64,000 nucleotides of DNA from a virus (Duplodnaviria; Heunggongvirae; Uroviricota; Caudoviricetes): positions 21,669-85,668 of the IMG/VR virus record IMGVR_UViG_3300005683_000050, one strand, 5' to 3'. Below are positions 15,997 to 45,130 of this stretch, piece after piece (position 1 is the stretch's first letter; each line of letters starts with the position of its first letter). Made by a program: the position numbers and the translations under genes. Below the pieces are notes generated by a model. That model did not search any database. It saw only the letters and a program-made list of their open reading frames with translations, and was not told the origin of the DNA.

Positions 15997-16069
15997 GCTG
16001 GGTCGGACTCCTGCCCTCCTCCGCTTTCGCGGTCAGTTGTAGTATCGCGCTATCGCCGCTTTTTGTCAA
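15997..16069 (-). ncRNA. sRNA cassette copy 1 (promoter + hairpin + AGGAGGGCAGGAG tail)
   Basis: TTGACA-17-GATACT, then CCGC-GAAA-GCGG, then AGGAGGGCAGGAGTCCGACCCAGC; 17 further copies listed under findings. Confidence 0.7.
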
Positions 16070-16109
16070 GGGTGTTGAAAAGTTTTAGAGTATGTGATAT
16101 GCTTTCGGT

Positions 16110-16514
16110 ATGAAGTTCATATACGACGATGGTGGTAGAAGTAAGGCTGGACATGCTGATTATCCGATGGACTGTGTGTACCGCGCGATTGCCATAGCAA
16201 ACCAAATGCCGTATGAAGTTGTTTTGTCGGATATAGGAGAGCGTTCCAAGACCGAACGCTCACGAATTCGGTCTAATGTGATAACTGGAGTACGGAGTGA
16301 TACTTCTGACAAGTATTTGACCATGTTGGGATGGATGCATGTTCGGATGGGACGCAAAAAGAGAATGATGCGTGAAGAGCATTTACCGAATGCGTTGTTG
16401 ATAGTCACAACCCCAGACCATATGACATGTATTGACCACTGGACGATACGCGATTTGTATAACTGCTCAAATTTTGGTGAAGCCAGAATAGATGGATACT
16501 GGATTAGACATTGA
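16110..16514 (+). CDS. DCxxRA-motif protein, paralog of 12711-13136
   Basis: YDDGGR...DCVYRAIAIA...HMTCID. Confidence 0.7.
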   Translation: MKFIYDDGGRSKAGHADYPMDCVYRAIAIANQMPYEVVLSDIGERSKTERSRIRSNVITGVRSDTSDKYLTMLGWMHVRMGRKKRMMREEHLPNALLIVTTPDHMTCIDHWTIRDLYNCSNFGEARIDGYWIRH

Positions 16515-16682
16515 CAAAGAAGGACGGTATACTCTAGATATGAGTGGTTCTATGCCGAAGACGGTTCTAATTTGTATGGCGAAACGGACGACAAGACCTA
16601 ATGACGCATAAAAAACTTCACAAGTTGATGTTTGCGTTGTATCCGTATCTTGACAAATCTGTGAGGATGTGATATACTATAG

Positions 16683-16843
16683 TTGTTGGTGAGAAGCTGG
16701 TAAACTAGATAAGACAATCTGTGCCAGTGAATACGCGTTGAGTAGTTCGCGGCAGCGCACCTGCCACCGCATCCAGATTGGTCGGGGACGCGTAAAAAGT
16801 AAAGACCAATCAAAAAGCACTGTCTATATAGACAGTGCTTTTT
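16683..16843 (+). ncRNA. Putative ~160-nt structured RNA ending in a palindromic terminator
   Basis: TTGACA-17-TATACT upstream; stems GTTGGT/ACCAAT, CAATCTG/CAGATTG, GGCAG/CTGCC; 32-bp perfect palindrome 16812-16843. Confidence 0.55.
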
Positions 16844-17354
16844 TGTATGCTACGACCACGAGGTATTCGACCACGGGCTTTTTGACCATGCGACCACGGG
16901 GGTTTGGACGCGCGGTTACACAAGGCGACCCGCCGCGCGCGACTTTACATAAGGCTGGTTACATAAGACTGATTCACTGCCGCGAGTTACATAAGAACTT
17001 GGATGTACACGGCGATAGCCGCGCGTGTCGCGGCTACACATCGGCAGAGAAAATTCTTTCTTCACGCTTTCACCCTATCACAAACCAAGCAGTTTGTCAA
17101 ATAGAACATATGTTCTATTTTTGTGCTGGGTCGGACTCCTGCCCTCTTGCGTTTTTCACGCTCGATTATAGTATAGCAGGAGTCCCATTTTTTGTCAAGT
17201 GGGGTTACATAAGATTTTTGTGCTGGTGCGGACTCCTGTCCTCCCCCACTCGTCGTGGTCAATTGTAGTATAGCGCACTGTGAAAATTTTGTCAATAGCA
17301 AAACCCCCACAAGTCTCGCTGTGGGGGTTATTCTACCGAATTATAGGATTACTT

Positions 17355-17422
17355 AGCGAATGGCAGGACTCGAACCCGCATCTTTGACTAACGCAACGCT
17401 TTGCCTATTTAGATACACTCGC
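17355..17422 (-). tRNA. tRNA-like element with shortened anticodon arm (loop centre TTA); probably not a canonical decoder
   Basis: 7-bp acceptor GCGAGTG/CATTCGC; T-arm GCGGG-TTCGAGT-CCTGC; D-loop with GG; anticodon stem only TTG/CAA; 68 nt; no encoded CCA. Confidence 0.6.
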
Positions 17423-17603
17423 CCATTTTTTACCGCCATTGCTCGGTTAACACTTTGGCGAACCTTTCGGAAAAATGAATCCCCAGAGTCAAGGTCTGCC
17501 CTGAGTCTGACTATTCATTGACATCATCATATCACGGATGTTTTCTTTTGTCAAGTGGTTGACAAAACTTGTTGAATTTGTTATAATTCTTTCAAGGAGA
17601 AAC

Positions 17604-18685: not shown

Positions 18686-18728
18686 CAAAAAAACAGGTAT
18701 GGTGTATTATATCTGTGGAGGTGACATT

Positions 18729-19253: not shown

Positions 19254-19341
19254 CATTCCTTGTAAACCACGCTTAGGCGTGGTTTTTTTGTCTACTTGAC
19301 AAGCAAGATTGATTCTGCTATAATAATTGTAAGGAGGCGAC

Positions 19342-20654
19342 ATGAAAATCTACGTGGTGGTGAGCTATACGGCTCGTGGAGACTCTGTGATACGAAAGGT
19401 GTCTGCGTCTAAACGTAGTATCAAAGCATTTCTTCTCAAAATTGAATGGCTCGGCTCTTTTTGGATTAACGTTGAGACATGGCAGGACGGCGCGTTGTCC
19501 AACATTGAAATTATCAATGCTGAAAACTATCAAGAATGGGGGAAACATGGAAATCATTCAGTTCGCGGGAATTGATTGGAAGCACGGCACGAGCGCAATT
19601 CAAGACTTCTTTGAAACAAAAATTGACGGGATTCAGTTCATTGTCTCGAAAAACACACACCCCTTGAATCTGGGGGATTATCCCAGAGGATGGTTTGCGA
19701 TGTATGTTGACCGCAAGGGGAATTGGTGTCCTCTGAACACACGGATGACACACCTTGACGGAACAATTGAATGTGACCCGTTTTTTGAATATACCGACGA
19801 TGCGGATGCAGACATACCCAAATGTTTGATGTTTGCAATCGCGACGATGGGCATTCGGTGCGCCACGGAGAAACAAAATGAAATTTGATGCTGAAACGTA
19901 TTTTAATACAGCGAAGGGTACACGGAGTTGAATTTCCGAAAAACGCAACGATTCTACATAAAGAGGCGGGCTGGTCTATCATCGCCTATATTGGCGATGA
20001 CTATGTTACACTGGATTACATTGTTGGCAAGTTCACGGTTGACTTTTCCTGGTGTGACCAATTGGTGTATGACGGGAAAAACCCAATTCATGCAAAAGCA
20101 AAGTTCTATGCAGGGGTTGAGGAAATGACTTCGACCACGAGGCTTTCGACCACGGACAATTGACACGATTCGACCACAGGACTTGTGTGTGGGGGGCGGA
20201 AAAAGCGTAGTACGCGTTTTTTCGTGTACCGTCTTGAATGTATCACGTTTCTGACTTTTTGTCAAGTGGGGTTACATAAGATTTAGACGCTGGGTCGGAC
20301 TCCTGCCCTCCTCTGCTCATCGCAGTCAACTACATTGTAGCATCGGAACGTATTTTTGTCAAGTGTATTGACAAAAGACGGGGTGAGTGTTAATATGATA
20401 AAGAAAGGGGAAATCAAATGATTACCAATCAAACAGTAGGATATGAACCGCGTTGGATTTTCAATCCCGCAGACATTGCGAATTCGCAGTATCTGCGCGC
20501 GTGTGATACTGATGACAACCTATTCTTGTTCGATACCGCCCTTGACGCACAGATGGCTGGTATGGATTGGTGCGTTGGTATGGACAAGAATCTGTATCCG
20601 CAAGAAAATTTGGTGGTTGCAAAAATCACAGTTGAGTACATTCTTCTGAATTGA
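19342..20654 (+). CDS. Small hypothetical genes (19342-19575, 19547-19888, 19888-20163, 20418-20654)
   Basis: Promoter, SD and ORF architecture. Confidence 0.65.
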
Positions 20655-20723
20655 ACGCGACTTTGGCGCAGTGCTTGACAAGTTTCGGCAGTTGGGGTAT
20701 AATAGAGACATGGAGGCAAATCA

Positions 20724-21563: not shown

Positions 21564-21961
21564 AACGCTTGTATCTGTTCCTGTATGGACAAGAAATACC
21601 GAGTTGGATGCCTTTGTTTCTTGTGCCTGACTACGTTGGCGGGAACTGCTTTCAGTTGTTTTTGTGGAAATTCGACTTTCCGCACAGTCTTGCTGGCGAT
21701 ACGTTTTTCATGGCATGGCGCGAAGAGTCGAAACGCGCGTCGCGGGGATAAAAACAAGGGGATGTACTCCCCTTGTTTTATTTTTATATCTTATAGAACA
21801 TATGTTCTAGTTACATAAGATTTTGATGCTGGGTCGGACTCCTGCCCTCCTCCGCTTCGCGGTCAGTCTCAATATACCATCTCGGCATATTTTTGTCAAC
21901 ACCCTTGACAAACTATCAGAGACATGCTATTATAGGGCATAGGTAAAAAACGGGGGTGAAT

Positions 21962-22597: not shown

Positions 22598-22635
22598 TTA
22601 CTGTCTATGTAGGCAGTAACATCGGGAAGTGAAAA

Positions 22636-22930: not shown

Positions 22931-22970
22931 CAGACTTGACAAATTGTAGGTGTCGGTGTATTATACAGAC

Positions 22971-26367: not shown

Positions 26368-26967
26368 AACTAGATTGCTCTGTATCGCGCGGTATATGGT
26401 CTCGCGCTGAATTTAGCGAGTGCTTATCGTCGTTTAAGAACGGCACGATTATCGGCAATCCGAAATACCGAGATAGCGTCGGAAGTGAGGGGGTATGGCG
26501 CGATATAAACACATACCCCTACCGCAATTATTCGACTGTCTATTAAGACAGCCATCAATCCGAGATTGTTTTCGACCACGAGGATTTCGACCACGGGACT
26601 TTTGTCCTGTGGTTTTTTTGTTGATTCGACCACGAGGATTTCGACCACGGGGGTATGGTGGCGCGCAAAGAAGATGCCGACCTGAGTTACCCAAGAACGG
26701 CAGGTATGGCAAGGTCGGCGCATTATGTCAAGTTGCCGCGCGGAGATGCGCGGAAATAGACAAGGCGCGCGCCTTGTTTCCACGTTGGAATGTAGCACGT
26801 TTCTGACTTTTTGTCAAGTGAGGTTACATAAGATTTTTTTGCTGGGTTGGACTCCTGCCCTCCTGCGCTCTTCGCGCTCGGTCATAGTATCGCGCTAACG
26901 CATACCTTTGTCAAGTGGTGCAGAATTGCCTATTGACAAAAAAACGCGCTTAGACTATAATACCGAC

Positions 26968-27621
26968 ATGACCACAAAAAACATGTTCGGATACGGAAAT
27001 TCAAAGCTGGTGCATTTGCAAAATCGCGTGGGTAAAAAGGTTGCGACGTTTGACCTGCTCGCGGGTCATACCTGCCCGATGGCAAGCGACTGTAACGTGC
27101 GTGTCATTATCAGTAAAGGACACCGCCGATTGAAAAAGTTAGGCAAATGGGCTTGCTATGCGGCAAAAGCGGAATTGGTGTATACCGCTACATACCGCTT
27201 GCACAAAATCAATAAAACGCGCACTTTGCGCGATACGTTTGTAAAGCGCGCGATTCGCGAAATTGAAAAAAACCGCGTCGAGATTATGCGGATTCACAGT
27301 TCGGGAGATTTTTACTCTTGGGAGTATTTCCAAAAGTGGTACGCAATCGCGCAAGCGTTGCCGCATGTGTCGTTTTTTGGTTATACCAAGCAAGCGACCT
27401 TTGTAAAATGGTTACTTGCACACCCTCTGCCGAATTTGAAAATTGTTTACTCGCACGGCGGATTACTTGACAATTTCGCGGCAGCTCACAATTTGCCGAC
27501 GTGTTACGTGAAAACGCAAGAGGGTCAGTACCCCGAAATTCCTGTAGCTTGCGGCGCGGTACATAGCGACGATTACGAACACGTTTTAGCGCAGCATGAT
27601 TTTGTAATCGAGTTCCACTAG
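26968..27621 (+). CDS. Phage Gp88-like protein (copy 1), leaderless
   Basis: GNSKL...TFDLLAGHTCPMASDC...CYAAK...RIHSSGDFY; TTGACA-17-TATAAT-6-ATG. Confidence 0.8.
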   Translation: MTTKNMFGYGNSKLVHLQNRVGKKVATFDLLAGHTCPMASDCNVRVIISKGHRRLKKLGKWACYAAKAELVYTATYRLHKINKTRTLRDTFVKRAIREIEKNRVEIMRIHSSGDFYSWEYFQKWYAIAQALPHVSFFGYTKQATFVKWLLAHPLPNLKIVYSHGGLLDNFAAAHNLPTCYVKTQEGQYPEIPVACGAVHSDDYEHVLAQHDFVIEFH

Positions 27622-27997
27622 GGAGGGGGGGGACAATCCCCTCCCTAGCTTAGAACGATGCGCTATAATACAAAAGACGTAGCAAGGGGCAGCGAGCTTT
27701 GATAGAACCGACTAGGCACAGAGCATAAAATCCTGTGGACGCGAAAGGTTCGTAGCCGACCACGCGGGGAAAACGCGGTAAAGTGGGCGAAAGCACTGGT
27801 GCGAGTGTGAGTATCCCACAACCTTTTTTGTTTCGGTGTATGTTACATATAAGAACATGTGTTCTAATTGGATGCTGGGTTGGACTCCTGCCCTCTTACG
27901 CTATCCGCGTTCAGTTATAGTATCGCGCTATTTTCGTTTTTTGTCAAGGGACAGTATTGCACTTGACAAAAAACTCAGCAAGGTGTATCATTCAGCC

Positions 27998-30699
27998 ATG
28001 AATAACAAACATATAGCGCGAGTGTCTCGCGCACACCGCGCCAAAGCTGTAACCGATTTTATCAATTTTCAATTCGGGTGTGATAATATCACTGCCGAGA
28101 TGCAGCCTGTTTTCCAGAATGCCGATGAGTACGAAATCTTTGCGAATTGTCGGCGGGGCGATGTGCGTATGTTGAAAATTGCTATCTGTGCCTTTTTGCG
28201 CGGCGCGGAATGGCAAGAAAGTCGCGTTTGACAAACTTTTGACCTTGTGGTATATTGAACGTGTAGGACAAAATCAACCAAAAGGGGTGTGCTGTGAAAG
28301 AGTATTCTACCAAAACCAAGTCGGTGGTTGTTACTCTGTTTGAATTCGCTCTCAGCGTGCTTTTGAAGCTCAAATCGCGCGACGCGAATCGCGTTGCCGA
28401 AATCAAGGCACAGATTGCCGCGCTGAACAAAGAGCTCGCGAATGTGACTAAGGAATACAGTGATACGCAAAGCAAATTGACGATTGGTCTCATTCCGTTT
28501 GTTGAGCAGTGGGCGCGTGAAAATGAAGGCAGTTACGTCGGCAAGAATGGCAGGGTCAAAATTGTGCGTCCGTATTTGCGGCGCGTGTGGAGTGCTGACA
28601 AGATGGATGAAATCTTGGAACAAAACCCGTACTTGCTCCCCGTTTTGCAAGGCGCGTTTTCTGTGACACCTGTTGAGATTCAAGTCGAATTGCAAGTGTA
28701 AGACAATGCCCGCAAGGGCATTTTTTTACGTTCCGATAGAACATATGTTCTACTGGTTACATAAGAACTCTATGTCGGAAAATCGCAGTTTCAAACTGAA
28801 AATCCGTAGAACATTTGTTCCATTTCTAGGACTTGGGCCTTTTTGCTATATCCCACCGAATTTTGACTTATCGCCTGTCTGGATAGACAGTTGACAAAAA
28901 AAATGATTTGACGTATAATACAGACATGCAAATCAAAAAACATTTCCGAGCTGCCGATTTTACGGCGACCCAATTCGGTACGGCGCAAGAAAAGGCGGAT
29001 TTCGCAAATCACTTTATCTACTTTGTCGAAAGTGGATGCCCGTATCGTTTGTTTCACAAATGGTTTTACGGGCGACTGTCCATGTGTTTTTGTCATATCG
29101 CCCACTACAACAAAGACGGATTTTATAGTGTGTGGTTTTCGTCGGACGCTCATAAAAATTTCATGCAACACACTCTTTCTTTTGTCCCGTTTGGCGACCC
29201 GTATTATACGTATTGCGATGTTGAACATGCCCTGATAAAGTATTTCAAACGTCACCCGATTCGATAACGGTGGGCATTGCCCACCATCGGCGCGTGAATC
29301 TCCATAAAGGGAGACACGACAGCGAATTAACGCGAATACTGTACAGTATGACTTGCCCGTAAGCGAGTCTGGGGTGAATTGACACCCGCGCCGTCAATCT
29401 TTTATCGCTTGACAAATCCAGCGAGCTAGTGTATCATACATTCACAGGTGAAAAAGTGAAACGAGTCAAATGTAAAAGTGGACTGTCTGGACGCCAGCAA
29501 AAGCTGCAACGCATGTATCGTGGCAAAAGAGAGTTCATTTCATACACTGAAATCTACAACATTCATGGTCGTCTTGGTTTCAAGTCAGCAGAACGGTGTT
29601 GGACTGCCAATCCGTTAGTTGAATACTCTATAGACCCGTCCGATTTTCGTCGGGTGCGCGAGGTGAAAACTATCTGTCATTCGACGCTTGTGTGAAGTAC
29701 GGCGAAACCGATGCCGAGTTTACCGTAGAATGGTCAATGAGTAAAAACAAAACTCCGTACCGCGCGGGAAAGACGCTTTGGCAGCAATGGGGATTTTTTC
29801 TTCAGCCTGTCAGCGTTGTTGATTGCAGATTGACAAATTCTTGGAAATAGGGTAGAATACAGATACGGAAACACAACAAAGCTTTAACGGATGGCATTCT
29901 GGCGGACACGGTGTAAACGACATTAATGGACACTGAACAGCTTGTAGAACTTGAATTGTTCAAAGATATGCGTTGCCCGAAATGTTTCGGGCGCAATCTG
30001 ACCACGCGCGGAATCTTCAAAGACGTTACGCATGTTTGTATGGATTGCGGGAAAGAATGTACTGACGAAGAATCCTTGCGCGCTGGTCGGGAATTTCGAG
30101 AACGGAATAAAGAATAGATTCGACCACGGCACTTTCGACCACGAGCATTCACACACGCGCGGCAGATAGGGGATAGTGGATACCTGCCGCGCGAAGGCGC
30201 GGACAGGCGCGGAACGACCTGTCACAAAAAGTATAGCACGCTGTTCTTTTTTTGTCAATTTCGGTTACATAAGATTTTTGGGCTGGGTTGGACTCCTGCC
30301 CTCCTCCGCTTCGCGGTCAATTGTAGTATAGCGCTATTCTGATTTTTTGTCAAGGGATGGGCGATACTTGACAAATTGAAAGGGAAGGTGTATCATTTGA
30401 GTATGAATAAACATTCACCATATTTTGACCAGGAAAGTCCGATTGCGGAGATTGTTGGCATGATTGCGGATTTAGATGTATCCCGTCCTTATGAGCTATA
30501 CGCGACGGCGGTATTCAAGTGCAAACAGGGGTACTTGGTCGTTGGCGTTAGTGGATGCTCTTGTTGGCCTGACAGTGGCGGTACGTCTCAAGAATTTTGC
30601 CGCACGCGCGCCGATGTGGACAAACAATTGCGCGGGGAATGGCGCGAGCTTTTGACGCTTTGCCAACAGCGCAATTGGAAAATCGCTGTTGACAAATAA
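27998..30699 (+). CDS. Small hypothetical genes (27998-28231, 28294-28701, 28926-29267, 29456-29695, 29926-30117, 30403-30699)
   Basis: Own promoters; starts corrected to leaderless ATG where applicable. Confidence 0.65.
29270..29400 (+). ncRNA. Run of consecutive hairpins, putative structured RNA or 3' UTR
   Basis: GGTGGGC/GCCCACC, TCTCC/GGGAGA, ATACTGTACAGTAT palindrome, GGGTG/CACCC. Confidence 0.4.
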
Positions 30700-32299: not shown

Positions 32300-32324
32300 A
32301 CGCATCGCCGTTGGAATGCTAAAA

Positions 32325-32906
32325 ATGAAGTATTCTATAATTTACGCAGACCCCGCATGGAGTTATTCTATAAGTTCATCTGTTGCTGGTGGACGTGGGC
32401 AAAATACATCCTATCGTTGTCTGCGACCAGTTGAAATTTACGACATGCCAGTTGAAACACTTGCGGCAGATAATTCGATTTTGTTTTTATGGGATTCTTA
32501 TCCGATGTTGCCAGAAGCACTTTACTGTATAAAGGCTTGGGGTTTCTTTTACAAGACAAACGCTTTTACATGGATAAAGCAAAATAGAAAAGCGGATTCT
32601 GACTTTTTTGGAATGGGTCAATGGACTCGAAGAAATTCAGAAGTTTGTTTACTAGCAACGAAGGGAAATCCAAAAGCGATAGACCGCAGTATTTCAGAAT
32701 TGGTCTATTCACCAATCGGTAAGCATAGTGAAAAGCCTGCCGAAATTAGGGATTTGATTGTCAAGTTGTGTGGCGACCTTCCACGCATTGAGTTGTTCGC
32801 TCGGCAAAGAGTAGCGGGTTGGGATGTATTCGGGAACGAAGTCGAAGGTTCTATACGCCTTCCAACACCGCTTGCACTGGACGGGGATACGCTCCCAGAT
32901 AACTAG
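32325..32906 (+). CDS. MT-A70 family N6-adenine methyltransferase
   Basis: YSIIYADPAWSY...LFLW...AWGF.YKT.AFTW.K...GMGQWTRRNSE.CLLA..G...HSEKP...IELFAR..GWDVFGNE. Confidence 0.9.
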   Translation: MKYSIIYADPAWSYSISSSVAGGRGQNTSYRCLRPVEIYDMPVETLAADNSILFLWDSYPMLPEALYCIKAWGFFYKTNAFTWIKQNRKADSDFFGMGQWTRRNSEVCLLATKGNPKAIDRSISELVYSPIGKHSEKPAEIRDLIVKLCGDLPRIELFARQRVAGWDVFGNEVEGSIRLPTPLALDGDTLPDN

Positions 32907-33292
32907 CAGGTCTTACCCGCTGATGTACTGGTAGGCGAAGGCACTTTGCCCGAACCGCCCCTCCAGTAAATCGAACCGCGTTATCTTTCGGTTGACGCGG
33001 TTGAATGGCATAAAGGCGTCCCCCAATGTGGTTCGAGTCCACACTATATGCAGGTCGAAACTGTAATAGGCATGGAGTTCAAGGGATTCCCCAATAGGGT
33101 TCAATTCCCTACAATCAGCGTCAACCGAAAGCTAACGACATCGGTAATGTTACGTAGCTCGCTATTGATACCTACCTAGTGGAACAGCAGCGCGTCAGCG
33201 CGAGAGCGTTTTAACGGGGCGTGGAGAAGTACCCGACGTTGCGTATAGATTTACCGAAACAGAGACCGCGCAAATTGCGCGGTTTTTTGTTT
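32907..33292 (+). ncRNA. Putative ~380-nt structured RNA with two T-loop hairpins, ending in an intrinsic terminator
   Basis: TGTGG-TTCGAGT-CCACA and TAGGG-TTCAATT-CCCTA, each preceded by CCCCAA; terminator ACCGCGC/GCGCGGT plus T run. Confidence 0.55.
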
Positions 33293-33593
33293 TTGGCAAA
33301 GTCCTAGACCGTAGAACATCTGTTCTATTTTAACGCTGGATTGGACTCCTGCCCTCCTGCGCTATTCGCGCTCAGTCATAGTATCGCGCCGTTCCTGTTC
33401 TTTGTCAAGAGTCGGGATGACTGTTTACGGGTCAATGTCGCAAGTGTTCTTTTGTGGCACACTCAAACATGGATTTTCGCACCCTTGACAAAATCGCAAA
33501 AAAGAGATATGATTATGATATAGAGGTTTTGACATACTGTAATTTGTAGATACCTGCGCCCGATTGGAAACGTAATTGCAGCGTTAAAGGGAA

Positions 33594-36198
33594 ATGGAAA
33601 GTATCAATCAAAGTATGTCAAGGCAAACCTCTAAAATTCAAGACATGGAGGCACGAATGTATAATACACTCAAAGCACTCGAATCGTTACTGAATCTTGT
33701 CTTTGCGATGGGATACAACCAAATCGTAGTAAGAATCAAAGATGCGCCGAATCATGTTTGTCTTTCGGTTTGGCGCGGGCGCGCGGAATGGATGCTACGC
33801 ATTGGTCAAATCAAAGACCAAAGCTGGTATGTGTATTACATTGACAACGGCGGTATTGTCATTCTCTTTGAAGGGTATGTTTTCGCTGACGCGCTCTGCG
33901 TGTTTTTCAAGAAATTGCACGAGATTGCAGATTGACAAAGTGTGGTGACTGGTGTATTATACAGACATGAAAAACATTACCTACCGCGAATACAATCTGA
34001 CGTTTTTCCAGGTTCCAAGTGGGTTTTATATCCACTGCGAAAGTATTGACGAAGAGTTTTATACGTCAATCTTCGACACATTGCAAGGCGCAATTGACGA
34101 AATGATGTGCTTGTGCGATGAACCGTACAAGGGGTGATATATATGCAACTTATCAAATGGAATGCTCTTAACCAGAAACAACGCGATGCGGTCAGGGTGT
34201 CGTTTCCGTATTGGTATCTCGACCAAACGGCAAAAACGATTGAAGGATGGGCAGAAAAACATGCGTTTTGGTTTACCAATCGCGGGAAACTGGCGCAAAA
34301 GCGCAGTGCTGAACCTTTGTCTTCAGCCAACCATTACGAAAAATGCGATACCAAAATCAAAATTCAACTGCACCACGAAAGCGGCAACGACGTACAAAGA
34401 CGCATTGACGCTCTGTATACGTTTCTCGGCAGCGATTATGGATATGGATTACAATTGTTTTTGGATGCGTTCACAGTGAACCGCAATAACGTTCCGATTG
34501 AAATTCGCGGACTGTTTAACGGGTATTTGGAAAACTATATTTATATTCACGGAACACTGACTGTCCGCATTTACTCGATTTGAAAAGTGTAATCAAAAAA
34601 CCGTACAGCAATGTACGGTTTTTTCGACCACGAGCCTTTCGACCACGAGCCTTTCGACCACGAGCCTTTCGACCACGAGCCTTTGTACGTGTGTGTGGTG
34701 GGAATGGACACAGAACGACCCACCGCGCCTACGCGCGGTGGGTCACTAAAAATCTCACCATGAAAATTATCTTACGCCGTTCTTTTTTTGTCAAGTGTTG
34801 GTTACACAAGATTTTTTTGCTGGGTTGGACTCCTGCCCTCCTGCGCTCTTCGCGCTCGGTCATAGTATCGCGCTATTCACGTTTTTTGTCAAGTGGGGAG
34901 TTTCCTATTGACAAAAGTAAGAATCAATCATATAATACAGACATGGAACAAAAACTTATCGAATCACTTGCGGAGAATCTGTCGGCATATAACGCCGAGT
35001 GTGTGAATGATGGGGACGGTCATTATACCCTATTCTTGAATGGTGTACCAGTGATAGGGTACTCTGAATCAAAATCGTCTTGGCGTTGCTACAATGCCAA
35101 CGGTGTATCAGTAGGGCGATATTCTTGTTCGGACGCTCTGACTCACCTTGCGAGTCATTTGTAGCTTGACAAAACATTTGAGTCGTGTTATATTGAATGC
35201 AAGACGGACAAAAAACAAGGGAGGAAAAATGCCGAAAAATCCGATGGGCAAAACGGTCAAAAAGGAAAACGCGTATGCGGTGTATCGCGGCGGCGGATTC
35301 GATTACTTGGTGCTGAAAACGTACCAATCCGCCGAAAAAGAAGATGCGAATCCGTATGCGCGATGGTTTCTCGCGACGCGCTCTCCGTATACGTACGGCA
35401 GTTGGGAGCTGGGCGATGGATACGTGCGCGACGTGAAACGCAGTGCCTATCGCTTGTTGGATACCGACGCGGACGCGTTTCTCAAACGCGAATTTGGCGA
35501 CAAGGCAGGCATTACCAAAGTAACCGCGTGAGACAAAAAGGGGTAGCCGAAAAGCTGCCCCTTTTTTATTTACCCCAAATAGAACATATGTTCTGCGGGT
35601 TACATAAGACATCGGTGTAGAACATCCGTTCTATTTTTGTGCTGGGTTGGACTCCTGCCCTCCTGCGCTCTTCGCGCTCAACGGTAGTATCGCAGGATTA
35701 CTGATTTTTGTCAATATCTGTGTGGCAGATTGACAAACTTTATTAGATTGTATATAATAGCATCATAGCGAAAGGATGAAAAAAATGAAAATCAAAATTG
35801 TTGCAATGGGTGGTCAAGAGGATGCCTCAGCGCGTGATTATTACGCTCACTGTATGGCAATGATTGGAATTGAGGGTGAGGTAGAAGAAATTGCAAGGGG
35901 TGGTTTGGTTGGGATTTGGCAATGCCGCATGGAAAAATGTACTGACCCGACGCTTGGGAATGTCATTAGTCCGTTGGTCTATATTGACAGTGAAAAATCT
36001 ACAGAAACGCGCCCGTGTGGTTACTTGTTTGCACAAATTGTTAGTGGGGGCCCGCGCGATTTGTTGCGCGCAAATCGAGTCGGTGCGTCAAATTATCGTG
36101 TATGGTATCATGGCGATGAATACTCTTCTTGGATTGTGTCAGAGCAAGAGTTAATAGAAGCATACCCGATACTCGCGCGGTCTCTTGGTCTCTCTTGA
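33594..36198 (+). CDS. Small hypothetical genes (33594-33935, 33967-34137, 34143-34583, 34943-35164, 35229-35531, 35776-36198)
   Basis: Promoter-linked; 33967 and 34943 leaderless. Confidence 0.7.
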
Positions 36199-36259
36199 CA
36201 AAAGACTGAGACCGCGCTATAATAGGGGTGTAAGCAAAATTAACCAAAGGGGTGATAAA

Positions 36260-36349: not shown

Positions 36350-36575
36350 TGCGTCACATCTTGACTAGGGGCGCGCAGCGTTGGGGTTCGATACCCCGTG
36401 CCAGACTGGGCGGAAAATGCGTGGTGAGACGTTCGAAAGCTAATGACATCACATTGACTGTCGTAATTTTGAAGACCCGTATAATCGCGGACATACTGAC
36501 GCGGGGTCTGCTATGCCATATACGCTATCCAAAGTGACCCATAACAAATCAACCGCGCAAGACGCGGTTTTTTGT
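36335..36575 (+). ncRNA. Putative structured RNA related to 32907-33292
   Basis: T-loop hairpin GGGG-TTCGATA-CCCC; shared CGAAAGCTAAYGACATC; similar terminator. Confidence 0.5.
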
Positions 36576-36766
36576 TTTTGGTTCTAAAATAGCAAAGTCC
36601 TAGAATATAGAACATCTGTTCTATTTTTAGGATGCCTGTCCCTCCTGCCCTCCTCCGCTTCGCGGTCAATTGTAGTATAGCATCCCCAGCCGATTTTGTC
36701 AAGTCCTAAATTCGCCCTTGACAAATCCCAGAATGTGACATATAATAGAGTCATAAGGGGGTTAGA

Positions 36767-37430: not shown

Positions 37431-37848
37431 TACCTATTGACAAAGGTATGATACCTTGCTATAATAAGAGGGTAGAAAGGGGACAAAAATCATGGACGCT
37501 ATTCTCGGAAAACATGTGCGGGTTAGTGGTAACAGATGTGGCGTGGTCGCGTGGTATACCGACTTGCCTACCGTGTTGGGATTCTCGGTCAGGTACTACC
37601 ATGTTAACCTGTGGGGTAGCGGTGGCACGGTTGCCGCAACAATTGACGAAATCGAATTGCTGTAGGATATGACGACGACGAACAGGGCGAGTCTTGACAA
37701 AACCCTGTTCTTTTGCTATACTACAGTTGAGCGCGAAAGCGTGTGAGGACAGGAGTCCAACCCTACCTTATTATAGAACATATGTTCTGTCTGGATAGAC
37801 AGTTGACAAAAAGTGATTCGTGCGGCATAATAAGGACATGGAGGAAAA

Positions 37849-39771
37849 ATGAAAATCGTTCTGGTATATCAATGTGGCATTGCAAATGTTTTTCAGGTTT
37901 CGATATTCTCGAATGAAAGTAAAAACCGCAATGCAGTGCGCCTGTATCAAGGCAGCTTTGGACACTGCGTTAGCTTCGCGCGAGGGTGCGCGGCTGTTGG
38001 CGCGAATGTCAAAGTAGCAGCTTGCAATCAGGCTGGAGATATTACAAATTCGGTATGGTCAAGCGACATTGACGCCGCGCCGTTTTCGGAACAATTCACT
38101 AAAACGTTCAAGACAATCTAGAGTCTTGACAAATATCCAAACTTGGTGTATATTAGATTTGTAGGCGAAAAGGAGAAAAAACATGAACATTCTTTGCGAC
38201 GACCTGATGCCCGTACTCAAACAGCTGCAATCTGAAGGACTCGAAGTGTATAGTTATACGTCAATGGACATGCGCCAACGCGGAACGGCAACCAAATCGC
38301 TGTACTGGTTTGAGAATGGGTGTGTCTTGAACATTCAACCCGATGAATTCGGTTGGTACTACAATCTTGGCGTGTCTTACATTCCAAGTAGCGCAAACGG
38401 TTCGGGATGCCGCTTGACTCATGCTGACGGATATGGATACCACCCCGAAGGTGTGCGCGCTGACGAAGTACTGAAATTTCGCAACGCGGCAACGTGGGTT
38501 CGCGGCGCGCAGAATTACAAGAGCATGGAGCATTTTCTCAAAGAGCAATCCAAGTTTGTCTTGAAATTCGCGAAATTGGACGCTGACGGCAAAGTGATAG
38601 ACGAGACGCCCTAAAGCGTCTCTTTTTTTTGCGTGTCCATCTTATGTAACCAAGTAGAACAAATGTTCTAATCAAAAACCGAGTCATTGACTCGGTTTTT
38701 TTGTTTTGAGCGCGAAAATGGCTAAGTCCTAGAACATAGAACGTCCGTTCTATTTCGACGCTGGTGCGGACTCCTGTCCTCACACGCTCCCGCGCTCAAT
38801 GTGAATATACCATGCTTGTCAAGTTTTGTCAAATGCTTGACAAATAATCCATCGGCTGCTATAATAGTCACAGTGAGGCGAAAAATGAATCCGAGAATCA
38901 AGGTAAACAAATCACAGGTTGGCGAAATCGTTTCCGCGGTATTCCCTGAATACAAAGGTAGAAAATTCTGGGTAGTGTATGCCGAATCGGTTACGCTGCA
39001 CGACACCAATTGGGGCGGTGGTACACGCAATTTTTATCGCGGACTGAATCGCACTGGTGAAATTCGCAGTCCATTCGTTCCCTCTCCGTGGGTCAATCCG
39101 TTTGAGGGTGCGAAGATTGAATTGACAGCAGAAGTACTTTTGGTAGAACATTCTATTTTCTGTGGAAAAGATTTGGGCGTTACAATTTACGCTCACCCGT
39201 CGCTTGCTGAAAAATTGCTGACCGCTTGACAAATGTAATGCGTAATGATATTATGAACGCATGGAGGCAAACAATGCTTGAATTCATTCACTCGTTTTTG
39301 CATGTTGCAATCATGGAATCGGCACAATGTCGCGTGATTGCAAATGAAAACGGATTCATTTTCAGCGCAGAAAATACGCACGGGAAAATATCCGTAGCGT
39401 ACAAACGCGGTAATCCGTTTCGTATCACATTTGCTGATGACGATTACATGGATACGAACGCCGCTTCGATGGTTTCGGCGCAGATACTCGTCGCACTGAC
39501 CGCTTGACAAATGTAATGCATAATGATATTATGAACGCATGGAGGCAACATGAAAATCAAAATCGCAGTTAAAAAAGGTACGCCGCAGAAAATGGACGCC
39601 GACGACCAACCGACGTTTGAACAATGGTCAAAGCGCGTGGATGCCCTTGTGCAACGTTTCGCTTGCATGTCTTTGTATGACCTGCCAGACGTGCCTTTGA
39701 TGGATTGGTACAACGCGAGACTGCGCCCGATTCGTGCCGCAAACCGCGCGCTGAAATACGCACAAGAGTAA
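37849..39771 (+). CDS. Small hypothetical genes (37849-38121, 38183-38614, 38885-39229, 39274-39507, 39550-39771)
   Basis: Each has its own TTGACA-17 promoter and SD. Confidence 0.75.
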
Positions 39772-39976
39772 AAAAAGAAAACCGCGATATAATTCGCGGT
39801 TTTTTCATTTTTCGACCACGGCATTTTCGACCACGAGACTTCGACCACGGCACTTTCGACCACGGGGATATCGCGCGCGGATAGGGCGCGCGGATAGGGC
39901 GCGCGGCATGACATACCGCACAATTTTTGTGTGTATCCCAAATATCATACCGCCCAAGAGAAATTTTGTCAAGTAT

Positions 39977-41054
39977 GGTTACATAAGACGGCGGCATAGA
40001 ACATCCGTTCTATTTTGACGCTGGCTGCCGCTCCTGCCCTCCTCCGCGTTTGCGGTCAAATGTAGTATCGCGCTAACGCTCACTTTTGTCAAGTAGAACA
40101 TCTGTTCTATTGCAAGTTACATAAGACAATAGAACATCCGTTCCTCTTGACAAATTTTATCACTTAACCTATAATAGGCACATGAGCAAAAAAATGTTCG
40201 GTACACAGAATAGCAAGTTGACACATTTGCAATCGCGGCTAGGGAAAAAAGTCGCGACGTTTGACCTGTTGGCGGGGCATACATGCCCTATGGCAAATTT
40301 ATGTCATGCGCGCGTGGTAGTTCGCAATGGTCACAAGAAAATTCTCAAACTTGGAAAATTCTTGTGTTACGCGGCAAAGGCCGAAGCTGTATATCCGTCC
40401 GTATACAAATTGCATAAAATCAATAAGACGCGCAGCTTGCGCGCAACGTTTGTCAGTCGCGCTATCCGCGAAATTGTCAAAAACAATTTCGAGATTGTAC
40501 GCATTCACTCAAGCGGTGATTTTTACGATTTTGCGTACTTTCAAAAATGGTATACAATCGCGCAAGCATTGCCAAATGTGACTTTTTTTGGATACACCAA
40601 ACAAGCAACGTTTGCAAATTGGCTTATCGCTCACCCGTTACCAAACTTGAAAATTGTGTATAGTCACGGCGGACTACTTGATGACTATGCGGCAGCTCAC
40701 AATCTGCCTACATGCTACGTTGAAACACAAGAGGGCCAGTATCCCAACATTCCCCTAGCATGTGATGCCGTACATAGTGACGACTTTGAGTACGTTATGG
40801 CGCAAGTGACATTCAAGATTGATTTTCACTAAAACGCGCCGAGTCAATGAAAAACCTACGGGAAACAAGTTAAATCCCTGTAGGTTTTTTGTTCTATTCG
40901 TCAGAACATTTGTTCTATCGGTTACATAAGACGGCGGCATAGAACATCCGTTCTATTTTGACGCTGGCTGCCGCTCCTGCCCTCCTCCGCGTTTGCGGTC
41001 AAATGTAGTATCGCGCTAACGCTCACCTTTGTCAAGTAGAACATCTGTTCTATT
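39977..41054 (+). repeat. 135-bp direct repeats (39977-40111 and 40920-41054, 1 mismatch) flanking Gp88-like copy 2
   Basis: Direct comparison of the sequence. Confidence 0.9.
40182..40832 (+). CDS. Phage Gp88-like protein (copy 2), leaderless
   Basis: Clearly similar to 26968-27621: NSKL...TFDLLAGHTCPMANLC...CYAAKAE...RIHSSGDFY. Confidence 0.8.
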   Translation: MSKKMFGTQNSKLTHLQSRLGKKVATFDLLAGHTCPMANLCHARVVVRNGHKKILKLGKFLCYAAKAEAVYPSVYKLHKINKTRSLRATFVSRAIREIVKNNFEIVRIHSSGDFYDFAYFQKWYTIAQALPNVTFFGYTKQATFANWLIAHPLPNLKIVYSHGGLLDDYAAAHNLPTCYVETQEGQYPNIPLACDAVHSDDFEYVMAQVTFKIDFH

Positions 41055-41088
41055 TGACAAATTTCTGAGACCGTGCTATTATATGGTC

Positions 41089-43423
41089 ATGGAAAACAAA
41101 ATGACACACCCAAACAAGAATGCCGCAATTAACGCCGCGCGCTTCGCTAGCACTTTTGACGGTGTAGCGTACGCTGTAGTAGCATTGATGGGCGGAATTT
41201 TCGAAATTTGCAAGGTGTCGGAATTGCGCGATTTTAGCATGGTCATAGTCGCGTACAAGTACGGGCGGATATTCAATCTGAATTGAGCTCTTGACAAATT
41301 TCCCTATCCGCGCTATAATGCTCTTGTAGGCAAAATTCACAAAAGGGGTGAAACGTGATTATCAAAGTCGGCAAGAAAACGGGTGTTGACCTCAGCACGG
41401 GCAAGGTAGTACTGTTGGGCAAGGGCAAGGGCAAGTAGGGGCTAACGCCCCTTTTTTTTGATTCGCAATAGAACATCTGTTCCACGCGGTTACATAAGAA
41501 TTTTTGAATAGTTGGCAAAGCGGGCGGTTACACAAGATTTTAGATTCAGAAAACTACGCTTTATAGTTAGGATTCCATAGAACATTTGTTCCATTTCTAG
41601 GACTTGGGCCTTTTTGGCGGTTTGCGATAAAATCAAAAAAGCGGGATACTTGACAAAAAAAACTATTCCGCGTATAATGAGTATATGGAAAACAAGATAA
41701 CAAAAATCAACGAATTGATGAAAGCATTAATGCCCCAAATTTACATTGATGCATACAGTAAAGATGCCAAAGATTTTTTATATTTCGGGTTTCTCGAACG
41801 CCCTGGACAATTACTCTTGGCTGTTATCCAAGAGACATGGATTGTAGAATTCAAGGATTGGTATAGTGGGGAGATTCTGCAAATTTACCAGGGGACGGAC
41901 GCTGAACGCGCTTTTAGTTTGTTTTATGAACGGGCGCGTTTAATCAAGGCGATACAAGAATAAAAAAGGGGAAAAAACAATGCCTATCGAAATCATTGTC
42001 GCAATCGGACTCGCTGTAGCATTCAGTGTCTCGTTGACTCTCACATTTTCGGCAAAACGTCAACGGGCTGTCAAGTACGGCAAGAATCGGTACGAACGCC
42101 TATCGCGGTGATAGGCATTTTTGGTGGTTACATAAGACGGCAGTATAGAACATCCGTTCTATTTTAACGCTGGCTGCCGCTCCTGCCCTCTTGCGGTATC
42201 CCCGCTCACCTACATTATCGCAGATTCACACAATTTTGTCAAGTAGAACATTTGTTCTGGTCGGTTACATAAGACGGGCGTACAAAAAAAAACCCCTTGC
42301 GGGGCTACATTTCGATATTTCGCCAAAAAAATATAAAGGCAGTACCAAAAACGACGGCGAAAATCAGGGTAGGAATAATGTTTTCCATTGTATGCGCTCC
42401 CTTGTGAATGCTTGCTTGCCTATGTTTTAAGTATAGGTCAAATGAAGAAATTTGTCAACAGTCAAAAATGACTCGATTCTACCTATTGACAAAAACGAAA
42501 TTTTGCGTATAATAGACTATAGAGGGGTGAAAAATGTCAACAGAATTCTCTTTTGTCACTGGTAACAATGAACTCCATGAATTTGCCTTGCAATCTTGCG
42601 GTTGGCAATTTTCGTTCACACGCCCGCTTGACAAAACCGCCGCGCCGTGATACAATGCTCTTGTAGGCAAACTTCACAGGGAGATGAAAAATGACACACA
42701 GTGAAGCAATCGCACAAGCGCAGAATGTGTATCGAGCAATCCACATGTACGTTGTCAAATTTCCAGATGGCACATTTGGAGTTGCAGAGGGGTACAAGGT
42801 CACAAGCGATGGGCGCGCTGAAGTTTACGGAAAAAATGGGCGCGCGATGGAGCATTACTTTCGCACGCAATACTGTGGGCGTTTTGATGAATCTGGTACA
42901 TACAAATTTGGGACGGATTGACCAAAGGGGAGCGTATGGACACAAAACAAATGCTTGAAAAAGCGATGGAATACAATGGCGCAAAACGCGCGAAACTGAT
43001 TTTGCTCGCGGTGTGTCTCGATGTGAACAACGAGCTCACTAACGCTGAACGTGCCGAAGCTTTGCTGAATGCGTACAACGCTCTCCAATTTGAAGAAGAC
43101 CCTGTAAATTTGGAAATTTGACAAAAAAACAAGACCGTGCTATACTACTTTTGTCGGCGGAGATTTACGAAAAGTACCTTAATCTCTGCCGACAACTCCC
43201 AAAAAGGATAAACACCAAAATGACAGAAACATGGCACGTAGTAAAATACGCAAGCGACGGTACGGTACTTGCAAGATTCGAGACTGAAAATTTGAATGAA
43301 CGCGCCCTGCAAGAATGGTGTGATGAGCAAAAAGGTAGAAAAGTCGTTGCAACAGCCGAAGGAAATTTCGTCACGTTTGAATACAAAATCCCAACTTGGC
43401 GCAACCAAGAATTCGATTTCTAA
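41089..43423 (+). CDS. Small hypothetical genes and micropeptides (41089-41286, 41355-41438, 41685-41963, 41980-42111, 42691-42921, 42936-43121, 43220-43423)
   Basis: Promoter/SD or leaderless architecture. Confidence 0.6.
42305..42388 (-). CDS. 27-aa hydrophobic membrane micropeptide
   Basis: Minus TTGACA-17-TATACT, AAGGGAG SD; MENIIPTLIFAVVFGTAFIFFWRNIEM. Confidence 0.6.
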   Translation of the reverse strand: MENIIPTLIFAVVFGTAFIFFWRNIEM

Positions 43424-44185
43424 AAAAGAAAACCGCGAATTATATCGCGGTTTTCTCATTTTTCGACCACGAGCCTTTCGACCACGAGGATTCGACCACG
43501 AGCCTTTCGACCACGGGGTATTGCTCGGCACAGATTTTACCCAAATTTTGCCCGTCTTGGGTAACTCCGCCCCGATTTTCCGAACTTTTGTTCTAAAATG
43601 ACGTTTTTTGCCTATAAAATAGGCATTTTTTCGCCTTTGACTCTATAATTATACCCCAAAACGAGATTTTTGTCAATTCCACTTTACATAACGCGCGATA
43701 GGTTACATAAGAATATGCACCAGGTAGGCGCACAATAGAACGAGTTACATAAGAATTTTAGCACTCTATCCGACAGGGTGCTAAAAAGTTACATAAGAAT
43801 AGGCGCAATTTTACGTTTTCTTTCAAATTCTTCAGTTACACAAGAATTTTTTTCCGAAAAATGCGCTTTTATAATTATAAATCCATAGAACATTTGTTCA
43901 CATTCTAGGACTTGGGCCTTTTGGCGGTTTGCGAAAATTCGCAAACCGCGCCGCGTAGAAAATTTGTTCTATGTCAGTGCAGAGTGCGCGAAGCATAGAA
44001 CGTCCGTTCTACTCGCAGGTCGTTGGGTGTTAGAACGGATGTTCGGTTACATAAGACGCGGCAGGTCGCGTTTCGAGCGTTAGAACGGACGTTCTAATTT
44101 CGTGGTTACATAAGATTGCGCTCACAAGCCTAGCGCGGTTACATAAGACGGACGTACAAAAAAAATGCCCTTGCGGGCATTTTTT
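43424..44185. other. Gene-free, repeat-rich convergence region (terminator, TTCGACCACG x4, GTTACATAAGA array, LexA boxes, AT-rich tract)
   Basis: Read directly; the rightward and leftward early arms meet here. Confidence 0.8.
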
Positions 44186-44638
44186 CTATTTATTCACCAC
44201 AATTTTTCCCGCGCCCTTGCCATTTGAGGCCTTTTGTAATCGCAAGAATAAATCGGTACGCGGATTGTCGTTTCCGTCAAGAAACAACATTTCGGTACTG
44301 ATTCCGTCTTTCAGGAACTCCAGGCAAATTTTTTGTAGTTCATCTGAAAGATACCAAACTAAAGTCCCAACTACAAACGAGCGAAATTGACGCCGCATTT
44401 CCGCGCGGATTGCATCAATTTCGCGCGCGGTGTCATTCAGCGCGTGTATGTCAATCGCATTATCGCCACTTAAGGCAACAAATTTTTTCCAATTGCGTTT
44501 GCCATTATCTTTGCATTCATTGTACGGGTCTCCGCGTCCCCCGCGGAACTCGTTCGCAATTTCGCGCCGTTTTCTATTCAGCGCGATAATGTCATTCAAA
44601 AATTCTGCAATTCTTTCAAGTTCTTGTGCGATAATCAT
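44186..44638 (-). CDS. Hypothetical protein
   Basis: Start moved to MIIAQE after the shared leader with AAGGGG. Confidence 0.75.
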   Translation of the reverse strand: MIIAQELERIAEFLNDIIALNRKRREIANEFRGGRGDPYNECKDNGKRNWKKFVALSGDNAIDIHALNDTAREIDAIRAEMRRQFRSFVVGTLVWYLSDELQKICLEFLKDGISTEMLFLDGNDNPRTDLFLRLQKASNGKGAGKIVVNK

Positions 44639-45130
44639 TTTGTTTGCCCCTTGTGATTTTGCGGATGCCCTATTACATCCCCACACCAACATTATAGCAG
44701 ATTGCAAAAAAAACACAAGCGCGTCAACCTTAAAGATTCCGCGCGGTTTCGCGTCAATTCTTTAAGGTATGGATGTTCTATTCGCAGGTCGTTGCGTGTT
44801 AGCACATTCGTTCTACGCGGTTACACAAGACGCCCCGAAACAACGTCTAGAACGGATGTTCTATTTTGACGCTGGCTGCCGCTCCTGCCCTCCTCCGCGC
44901 TTGCGGTCAAACGTAGTATCGCGCCGATTGTGCCGCGTGTCAACTAGCACTTTTGTTCTACTCGCAGGTCGTTGGGTGTTAGAACGGATGTTCGGTTACA
45001 TAAGACGCGGCGGGTCGTTGCGCGTGCTAGAACAGATGTTCTATTCGCAGGTCGTTGGACGTTAGCACATTTGTTCTATGCGGTTACACAAGACAGGCGT
45101 ACAAAAAAAATTGCCCTTGCGGGCAATTCT

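Follow-up and report, generated by a model that had tools for sequence, protein, structure and literature searches.

The stretch of phage DNA described here (64,000 nucleotides, hereafter the window) comprises bases 21,669-85,668 of IMGVR_UViG_3300005683_000050, a single-contig IMG/VR virus record of 149,668 bp that CheckV rates as complete. Positive GC skew, coding score, plus-strand promoters followed by start codons, and Pfam matches mark the window between 12.7 and 44 kb as an early-type region of small plus-strand genes. Dispersed along it are 18 copies of a short unit in which a consensus promoter is followed by a small hairpin and a conserved purine-rich stretch. We propose that these are independent transcription units of the sigma-70/sigma-A type, the predicted transcripts of which would all be headed by one standard RNA module, and we consider below what that module may do.

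A repeated promoter with a covarying 5' hairpin

Searching the window with the core GGAGGGCAGGAG at up to one mismatch gives 16 sites, against a chance expectation of 0.10 (0/100 shuffles); at up to two mismatches all 18 sites are found, 17 of them on the minus strand and one (unit 13) on the plus strand. A covariance model was built from 49 distinct copies, 16 from the window and 33 further ones from about six related metagenomic phages (earlier tests used 26 copies). Scanned over the whole genome, it returned exactly 18 units (E-values between 5e-18 and 4e-12) and no further match at E<=1; the unit family is therefore real, complete and confined to window positions 15,986-44,943 (Table 1). 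Core search and model alike thus recover every member of the 18-copy family that a preliminary description of this DNA had proposed, and the promoter geometry reported there, TTGACA and a -10 hexamer separated by a 17-bp spacer, is present in 18 of 18.

Table 1. Units and associated features of the window (E, E-value of the covariance-model match; RNA lengths are predictions)
Feature	Window position	Strand	Sequence features	E	Setting
Unit 1	15986..16069	-	-10 GATACT; hairpin CCGC-GAAA-GCGG; core and tail, then TCTTAGGTAAC	5.4e-18	
Unit 2	17114..17198	-	hairpin GCGT-GAAAA-ACGC; core AAGAGGGCAGGAG; then LexA-type box	2.9e-16	third minus-strand promoter follows the box
Unit 3	17211..17295	-	hairpin CCAC-GACGA-GTGG; core GGAGGACAGGAG	3.3e-15	tandem, 97 bp upstream of unit 2, just past a tRNA-like gene and its terminator
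Unit 4	20278..20362	-	hairpin CTGC-GATGA-GCAG; then TCTTATGTAAC	9.6e-18	5 bp separate its -35 from that of the plus-strand promoter at 20368; second minus-strand promoter downstream reads CGTGGTCGAA repeats
Unit 5	21817..21899	-	hairpin CCGC-GAA-GCGG	3.0e-17	115-nt RNA, to strong bidirectional terminator (~21750-21780)
Unit 6	26830..26914	-	hairpin GCGC-GAAGA-GCGC	3.9e-16	back-to-back with leaderless GP88 promoter at 26933
Unit 7	27863..27947	-	hairpin ACGC-GGATA-GCGT (one G.U)	4.2e-15	back-to-back with leaderless promoter at 27963
Unit 8	30271..30353	-	hairpin CCGC-GAA-GCGG; then TCTTATGTAAC	5.4e-17	back-to-back with leaderless promoter at 30368; second promoter at 30258
Unit 9	33324..33408	-	hairpin GCGC-GAATA-GCGC; then LexA-type box	1.3e-17	
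Unit 10	34808..34892	-	hairpin GCGC-GAAGA-GCGC; then TCTTGTGTAAC	3.9e-16	second promoter, four CGTGGTCGAA repeats and bidirectional terminator follow
Unit 11	35630..35714	-	hairpin GCGC-GAAGA-GCGC	1.5e-17	130-nt RNA to bidirectional terminator
Unit 12	36620..36702	-	hairpin CCGC-GAA-GCGG; variant tail GGACAGGCATC	1.1e-16	
Unit 13	37694..37777	+	core TGAGGACAGGAG; tail end CTAC	3.9e-12	sole plus-strand copy; tandem, upstream of gene 37849-38121
Unit 14	38749..38832	-	core TGAGGACAGGAG	2.2e-14	124-nt RNA to strong bidirectional terminator
Unit 15	40009..40092	-	hairpin CCGC-AAAC-GCGG; tail CGGCAGCCAGC	1.3e-15	within 135-bp direct repeat; 280-nt RNA with four CGTGGTCGAA repeats and terminator
Unit 16	40952..41035	-	near-identical twin of unit 15	1.3e-15	151-nt RNA to bidirectional terminator of GP88 gene (~40845-40885)
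Unit 17	42158..42242	-	-10 GATAAT; hairpin GCGG-GGATA-CCGC	6.3e-15	
Unit 18	44860..44943	-	hairpin CCGC-AAGC-GCGG	1.6e-15	co-directional with minus-strand gene 44186-44716
Direct repeat, copy 1	39977..40111	.	135 bp		unit 15 and flanking boxes
Direct repeat, copy 2	40920..41054	.	135 bp		unit 16 and flanking boxes
CGTGGTCGAA repeats, examples	34632-34690, 39795-39865, 16850-16900, 20120-20180	-			
Leaderless promoters, examples	26933, 27963, 28891, 30368, 31067, 33932, 34908, 40147, 41054	+	ATG 5-7 nt past -10		

The TTGACA is perfect in 49/49 copies, the spacer is 17 bp in 44, and an invariant GA follows the -10 hexamer at exactly 6 nucleotides (nt) in 45, which places its G at the canonical +1. 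From this geometry we infer that the units are transcribed, with a predicted start at that G. Downstream of the GA come a 4-bp stem with a loop of 3-6 nt, two linker nt (the first an A in 41 of 49 copies, the second variable), GAGGRCAGKAG, seven variable nt, CAGC, and N-T-N3-AAT; the seven variable nt followed by CAGC were already recognised in the preliminary description and are confirmed here. Changes hardly ever touch the C, A or G of CAG or the second CAGC, and mutual information within the seven-nt tail merely separates lineage types (TCCRACC, CGGCAGC, GCACAGG and GGACRGG). The promoter spacer is unconstrained and has diverged freely between copies, so the copies are old and have been kept alike by selection at particular positions, not by recent copying. 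We considered and rejected a small open reading frame (ORF) in the module: there is no AUG, an upstream TTG lies outside the predicted transcript, and the variable loop length breaks the frame.

That the first hairpin keeps its pairing while its sequence varies, a claim for which covariation across related phages would be telling, is borne out by the larger alignment. The stem was 100% paired in the first 26 copies, with all four pairs altered on both sides; over 49 copies pairing stands at 99%, the double-sided changes number 39 and again involve all four pairs, and 0/500 column shuffles equal this. Shuffle tests on related sequences generally overstate significance; sliding the 3' partner by 1-3 columns, however, leaves 24-54% pairing, and this control together with 28 different loop sequences argues strongly for a real helix. 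Five stem cells are G.U or U.G and none is A.C when read on the transcript-sense strand, so it is on that strand, and not on its complement, that the helix is kept. The loops have a G...A form in 43 of 49 copies (GAAAA, GAAGA and GACAA among them), and in 45 of 49 the stem starts 2 nt past the predicted +1, so that the hairpin would begin at +3.

A 5'-terminal helix of this kind is present at 94% of units, versus 10% of other promoters (the level of shuffled sequence) and 0% of leaderless ones, and several second non-coding promoters downstream of units also have a hairpin at their start; in this genome the hairpin therefore goes with non-coding starts. The promoter-driven RNA units of the preliminary description thus gain support as autonomous (predicted) transcription units under sense-strand selection, from the covariation, the sense-strand G.U pairs, the G...A loops and the position of the hairpin at +3.

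The second hairpin put forward at the same time, GGGC-AGGA-GUCC, fared otherwise. It folds in most window copies, but is 80.8% paired and broken in 9 of 26, and its supposedly compensatory GGGC to GGAC variant is a one-sided change from G.U to A-U; no compensatory change occurs in those 26 copies. No other conserved helix was found inside the module, or joining its tail to sequence further down, either by mutual information (no complementary pattern) or by minimum-free-energy folds, which vary between copies. Some copies can pair the tail with sequence beyond the LexA-type box described below (CGGCAG with CUGCCG, units 15-17), which is not general. With the 5' helix the only conserved one, the module therefore consists of a terminal clamp hairpin followed by a conserved single-stranded sequence.

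This architecture bears on the possibility that the RNAs act in trans as a sponge for a specific RNA-binding protein, either of the CsrA type or some host or phage protein that reads GAGGRCAG...CAGC, with the dose supplied by 18 promoters. A -35 that is perfect in every copy implies that very high output has been selected for, more positions are invariant than mimicry of a Shine-Dalgarno (SD) sequence would need, and those units that encode the module and a terminator alone look like classical small RNAs. The repeats of CsrB read CAGGA(U/C/A)G, which the CAGGAG of the units resembles, and CsrB, CsrC, RsmY and RsmZ are likewise abundant non-coding RNAs (abundance being predicted for ours) with purine-rich GGA motifs. 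They carry about 5-22 sites, however, compared with one module per phage RNA; GGA is missing from the linker and core in 7 of 49 copies (present in 42), the second GGA is lost in 16 of 49 (CAGTAG, CAGGGT and similar), and the two GGA sites lie merely 8 nt apart. Nor is the hairpin that would display AGGA in its loop conserved. The phage genome has no CsrA gene (PF02599), and screens of the phage gave no candidate partner protein. The earlier suggestion of a CsrA sponge loses strength through the variable GGA, the unconserved loop hairpin and the missing phage gene, and we hold a protein sponge in general to be improbable.

The units had also been suggested to be dispersed R-loop priming sites. 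On this view the G-rich nascent RNA would remain on its C-rich template and prime DNA replication or recombination, as in ColE1 or T4 oriF/oriG. Consistent with this, purines make up 87% of the 11-nt core on the non-template strand, each unit has its own strong promoter, and 17 of the 18 window units share one strand. Yet C-rich versions of the seven-nt tail are as common as G-rich ones (G 32%, C 37%), there is a single GGG run, and polarity is lost in relatives (four plus and four minus units in contig L033). A two-tetrad G-quadruplex motif occurs in only 15 of the 49 single-stranded regions, and we rejected a quadruplex as the conserved feature. No initiator gene is linked to the units, and 18 origins within 29 kb would be unlike any known replicon. 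R-loop priming is thus weak as an explanation, and we consider it highly unlikely.

Genes, boxes and terminators around the units

Eleven window units are back-to-back with a strong promoter that reads rightward, 5-55 bp separating the two -35 hexamers (5-19 bp in nine cases), and aim at the 3' end of the preceding gene; two are placed in tandem upstream of a gene (37694, plus; 44943, minus). Among units of the relatives a rough classifier of SD-led and leaderless ORFs counts about 13 tandem and about 14 convergent. An ArdC-like gene in contig L040 and a GP88 gene in L047 have a unit upstream in the same direction, whereas the units beside the window GP88 genes are divergent. The back-to-back arrangement of the preliminary description thus holds for these 11 units but is not conserved: orientation relative to genes is free, being mostly convergent in the window and tandem for about half of the units in relatives.

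In all 49 units a DNA-type motif stands 7 or 8 nt past CAGC, which is TCTTATGTAAC in 25 and a LexA-type AGAAC-N4-GTTCT in 24. Both motifs also stand alone, the genome holding 35 copies of TCTTATGTAAC and 19 of the LexA-type box. A second same-strand promoter has its -35 within 0-9 nt past the box in 15 units and further away in 10; the other 24 have none within 115 nt. At up to one mismatch the 35 copies of TCTTATGTAAC span window positions 15814-47152, 33 on the minus strand, and often precede the -35 of a second minus-strand promoter by 3-7 nt, the position expected for an activator site or UP element. The 19 LexA-type boxes are perfect TAGAAC-N4-GTTCTA palindromes (LexA/Cheo-box-like, window 17102-46344), some abutting a promoter -35 and some 8 nt past the CAGC of a unit. 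No LexA DNA-binding domain is encoded by the phage.

At least seven window unit transcripts would reach strong hairpin-plus-U-tract terminators 115-330 nt downstream, which are two-way because they have a U-tract on one side and an A-tract on the other. As at least seven end at such terminators, the window unit transcripts look like discrete non-coding RNAs of about 115-330 nt, and most window units have no SD-led or leaderless ORF downstream. Several of the predicted RNAs contain two to four CGUGGUCGAA repeats with a 15-nt period, which are also read from the second promoter. On the minus strand, CGTGGTCGAA repeats (2-4 copies, 15-nt period; Table 1) lie between a second promoter with a 5' hairpin and a bidirectional terminator. 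CGUGGUC can pair with the first 7 nt (GACCRCG) of many unit RNAs, and the minimum-energy fold of the predicted 280-nt RNA of unit 15 has its 5' end paired to the last repeat in place of the local hairpin. Several relatives (L033:1470-1510; L036 and L050, the unit with TTGACAAAGTGGGTG) have an upstream-gene terminator of which the loop encloses the unit -35 and the U-tract is the promoter spacer, an extremely compact arrangement.

Boxes at a fixed distance and terminators ahead raise the question of whether the module acts in cis on the polymerase, the hairpin and conserved stretch deciding terminator read-through. It might do so in the manner of lambda nut, HK022 put or rrn boxB-boxA, or by keeping polymerase parked at a protein that occupies TCTTATGTAAC or the LexA-type box, in the way that Q is loaded at lambda PR'; whether the terminators ahead are passed would then depend on the polymerase being released or modified. 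As in rrn and nut signals, a small promoter-proximal hairpin with a GNRA-like tetra- or pentaloop, its shape kept and its sequence free, is followed by an adjoining conserved linear motif, and the unit loops include GAAAA, GAAGA and GACAA, which are also the boxB loops of lambda nutR, lambda nutL and P22. The rigid coupling of a protein-type DNA motif, at 7-8 nt past CAGC in all 49 copies, keeps this explanation alive, and nearly every early gene has its own terminator on which such a device could act.

On the other hand, the phage stem has 4 bp and not 5, the hairpin comes first, and GAGGRCAGKAG-N7-CAGC is unlike the boxA consensus (CGCUCUUA / UGCUCUUUAACAA); no boxA-like sequence is present. 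A NusG domain or paralogue was not found in the phage. A screen for arginine-rich ORFs gave six, of which a single one is encoded by the coding strand in the early region; its arginine-rich stretch is at the C-terminus, unlike N proteins, so that there is no convincing N-like early protein among them. Read-through in the window would yield just antisense RNA to early genes, with nothing useful beyond the terminators that the unit transcripts face. The two-sided U-tracts of those terminators suggest that their purpose is to stop unit transcripts, and tandem arrangements usually have no terminator between unit and gene. We therefore find a co-transcriptional control device doubtful.

The genes among which the units lie are themselves led by plus-strand promoters followed either by an ATG with an SD ahead of it or by one 6 nt past the -10. 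Pfam matches on plus-strand early ORFs are GP88 (two), MT-A70 (one) and, in a fourth ORF, a weak sub-threshold ArdC-like match. The first GP88 gene (40182-40832) lies between the two copies of the 135-bp direct repeat, which are 99% identical; a second GP88 paralogue (74% identical) at 26968-27621 adjoins unit 6. The tRNA-like gene beside units 3 and 2 is an Rfam match to RF00005 (39.6 bits, gathering threshold 29) at 17355-17422 on the minus strand, with its own minus-strand promoter (17554) and a terminator at 17302-17329 immediately upstream of the two units; ARAGORN finds no tRNA in the window. ORF-poor stretches at 32900-33260 and 36350-36560, downstream of units 9 and 12, have GGTTCGA-type T-loop hairpins on the plus strand that neither Rfam nor ARAGORN calls as tRNA. 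A different promoter-plus-5'-hairpin family is present at 45423-46430 on the minus strand, where near-identical TTGACA-17-GATAAT promoters at 45505 and 46243 share a leader hairpin GGATGC...GCATCC with an SD and a gene behind it; this pair heads coding genes.

Relatives and the novelty of the element

The phage has siphovirus-type tail genes, with a tape-measure protein of 1,493 amino acids at window 58415-62896 on the minus strand; its large terminase and portal genes both lie in the same genome, outside the window. Cultured relatives are remote, the terminase being about 30% identical to those of Acinetobacter phages and the portal about 29% identical to those of Geobacillus, Parageobacillus and Bacillus phages. 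From the portal matches and the AGAAC-N4-GTTCT boxes we can only infer a possible host of Gram-positive type.

Four metagenome contigs that each carry several units (L033-L036) came from a pattern scan, and following homologues of the adjacent GP88 gene led to contigs L039-L043 and L047-L050, which hold further ones. Early genes are common to these unit-bearing contigs and the window, at roughly 30-70% amino acid identity and in scrambled order; in comparisons of the window with L033, L036, L039 and L040 the units lie among shuffled gene cassettes. The unit is not in two more distant GP88-carrying phages (L044 and L045), nor in the five terminase relatives searched in IMG/VR. A strict core pattern found nothing in IMG/VR; a looser promoter-plus-core pattern matched 18 contigs there, all by chance, 17 of them being one ORF starting ATGAGGGCAGGAG. 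Two matches in a scan of 185,579 GTDB species genomes, both in metagenome-assembled genomes of Clostridia with no companion motif, were likewise chance. Megablast of 10 kb against 50,697 GenBank phage records gave no match. From this distribution across relatives, IMG/VR, GenBank and GTDB, the element is confined to a single narrow clade of uncultured phages.

With Rfam 15, searched over both strands of window 12,000-48,000, nothing matched any unit; the hits were the tRNA mentioned above and three sub-threshold chance matches elsewhere. Among the papers searched, the exact core 12-mer occurs only in unrelated eukaryotic ones. The preliminary description did not recognise this as a described family; as far as we have found, neither the motif nor its constant association with two DNA boxes has been described. 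As a kind, the element is one already known: a multicopy phage small-RNA or 5'-leader module.

The shuffled cassettes also bring forward an explanation at the level of DNA, in which strong promoters compete with or occlude their neighbours, 70-135-bp repeats serve as recombination joints, and the RNA is a by-product. At nine sites just 5-19 bp separate the -35 hexamer of a unit from that of an opposing gene promoter, so that polymerase footprints could overlap; gene order is scrambled relative to relatives with units among the moved cassettes; a 135-bp direct repeat containing a unit brackets a GP88 gene; and orientation flips for the same gene, the GP88 unit being divergent in the window and tandem in L047. 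There is a precedent in T4-type phages, where dozens of near-identical PeSL early-promoter-plus-stem-loop cassettes lie between small accessory genes (PMC2839356, PMC4122927). Like PeSLs, the units are a repeated promoter and stem-loop at the joints of shuffled or inserted gene cassettes. However, the stem-loop of a PeSL is a terminator that precedes the promoter (some relatives of this phage also have an upstream terminator overlapping the unit promoter), whereas the unit hairpin lies at +3 inside the transcript, covaries, and is followed by an invariant motif. A purely DNA-level function would leave the compensatory changes, the one-strand G.U pairs, the G...A loops and the invariant non-palindromic motif unexplained, and the freely diverged spacers attribute the similarity of copies to selection on specific positions, not to recent copying. 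We therefore think it quite unlikely that genome organisation is what the units are for; cassette shuffling is likely a consequence of the repeats and not their function.

A proposed protected RNA with a putative ribosome-binding platform

We favour, with a probability of roughly 0.4, the interpretation that the units produce an abundant, nuclease-protected family of small RNAs or leaders, each with a 5' protective clamp and a single-stranded platform that binds the 30S subunit or another factor. Transcripts would start with G(+1)A, followed by the 4-bp hairpin with its G...A (GNRA-like) loop and then by the platform GAGGRCAGKAG-N7-CAGC. The terminal hairpin, with just 2 unpaired nt at the 5' end, would act as a clamp against 5'-end-dependent RNases, and the purine-rich platform would bind a factor in trans, for which the best candidate is the anti-SD end of 16S rRNA in the 30S subunit, no start codon following. 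RNAs that are abundant and long-lived would result. Most of those from this phage would be discrete non-coding RNAs of the sizes given above, stopping at bidirectional terminators and in several cases carrying CGUGGUCGAA repeats; in related phages the module may also head longer transcripts that run into a downstream gene.

The duplex predicted between the conserved stretch and the 16S 3' end averages -10.9 kcal/mol, compared with -3.2 +/- 2.5 for random 20-mers of the genome and a mean of -7.1 kcal/mol for the best SDs of 100 long phage ORFs. This predicted complementarity, on average stronger than that of random sequence or of ORF SDs, is what directs us to abundant protected RNAs with a 30S-binding platform. 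A self-contained module acting at the level of RNA is suggested by the maximal promoter, the hairpin conserved in structure only, the invariant exposed stretch with no start codon, the high copy number and the indifference to what lies downstream; convergent, divergent and tandem placements are as expected for such a module.

The proposed mode of action is that of the Bacillus aprE leader and the cryIIIA STAB-SD element. In cryIIIA the stabiliser role is played by a Shine-Dalgarno-like sequence, STAB-SD. In B. subtilis aprE and B. thuringiensis cryIIIA, as in the phage module, a stem-loop that need only keep its shape lies at the extreme 5' end and is followed by a strong SD-like sequence that is unused for initiation; in our copies the stem lies 2 nt past the predicted +1 in 45 of 49, and the 16S-complementary stretch has no start codon after it. 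The phage module differs in being repeated 18 times per genome, mostly on non-coding RNAs, in its invariant RCAGKAG-N7-CAGC extension and in the constant DNA-type motif downstream; its stabilisation and 30S binding are predictions. In the aprE leader a stem-loop at the 5' end, together with ribosomes that bind without translation, gives extreme stability (PMC7509114), and stability that depends on a ribosome-binding site is reported for SP82 phage mRNA (PMC7509114; PMC5737220).

Several points weigh against this interpretation. Likeness to an SD is not universal, with GGAGG or AGGAG in 36 of 49 copies and GAGG in 46, and the predicted duplex energies span -13.5 to -4.2 kcal/mol, a minority of copies being weak. 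The invariant GAG.RCAG...CAGC goes beyond what an SD mimic needs: anti-SD pairing does not account for the most constant positions, namely C and A in CAG together with the later CAGC, which suggests a more specific partner. A pure RNA stabiliser does not predict that 49/49 copies should be rigidly coupled to TCTTATGTAAC or AGAAC-N4-GTTCT. Transcription of the units is itself predicted, and the RNases and anti-SD sequence of the host may differ from those that we assume.

An anti-SD decoy, an alternative raised in the preliminary description, is still plausible. Taken further, the units could effect a ribosome takeover, the 18 promoters flooding the cell with nuclease-proof small RNAs of which the GGAGG/AGGAG platform titrates host 30S anti-SD and so favours the leaderless and weak-SD messages of the phage; we regard this as unlikely. 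Of 127 TTGACA-17-(T/G)AnnnT sites in the whole genome, 31 consensus promoters have an ATG 5-7 nt past the -10 and predict leaderless mRNAs, and 44 of 100 phage ORFs of at least 150 amino acids have no recognisable SD motif.

A further comparison is with the 'sibling' small RNAs LhrC1-5 of Listeria, which are also paralogous promoter-RNA-terminator genes with a common single-stranded motif. Sibling RNAs pair with ribosome-binding sites through C/U-rich motifs. The unit motif, in contrast, is G/A-rich, no site complementary to the core exists elsewhere in the phage genome to serve as a target, and the 3' parts of the unit RNAs are mutually unrelated.

If transcribed as predicted, the units would rank among the largest families of paralogous RNAs in any one phage genome seen so far, and their 49 diverged copies are a clean comparative case with textbook covariation. 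They would show that a phage can give many transcripts a standard 5' end by means of a single portable module, and this compact module of about 45 nt is a candidate RNA-stabilising part. Depending on its partner, the module could reveal an RNA route by which ribosomes or RNA-binding proteins are captured in host takeover, a promoter-proximal control signal of a new sort that is tied to LexA-type boxes, or the Gram-positive-style equivalent of PeSL cassette shuffling.

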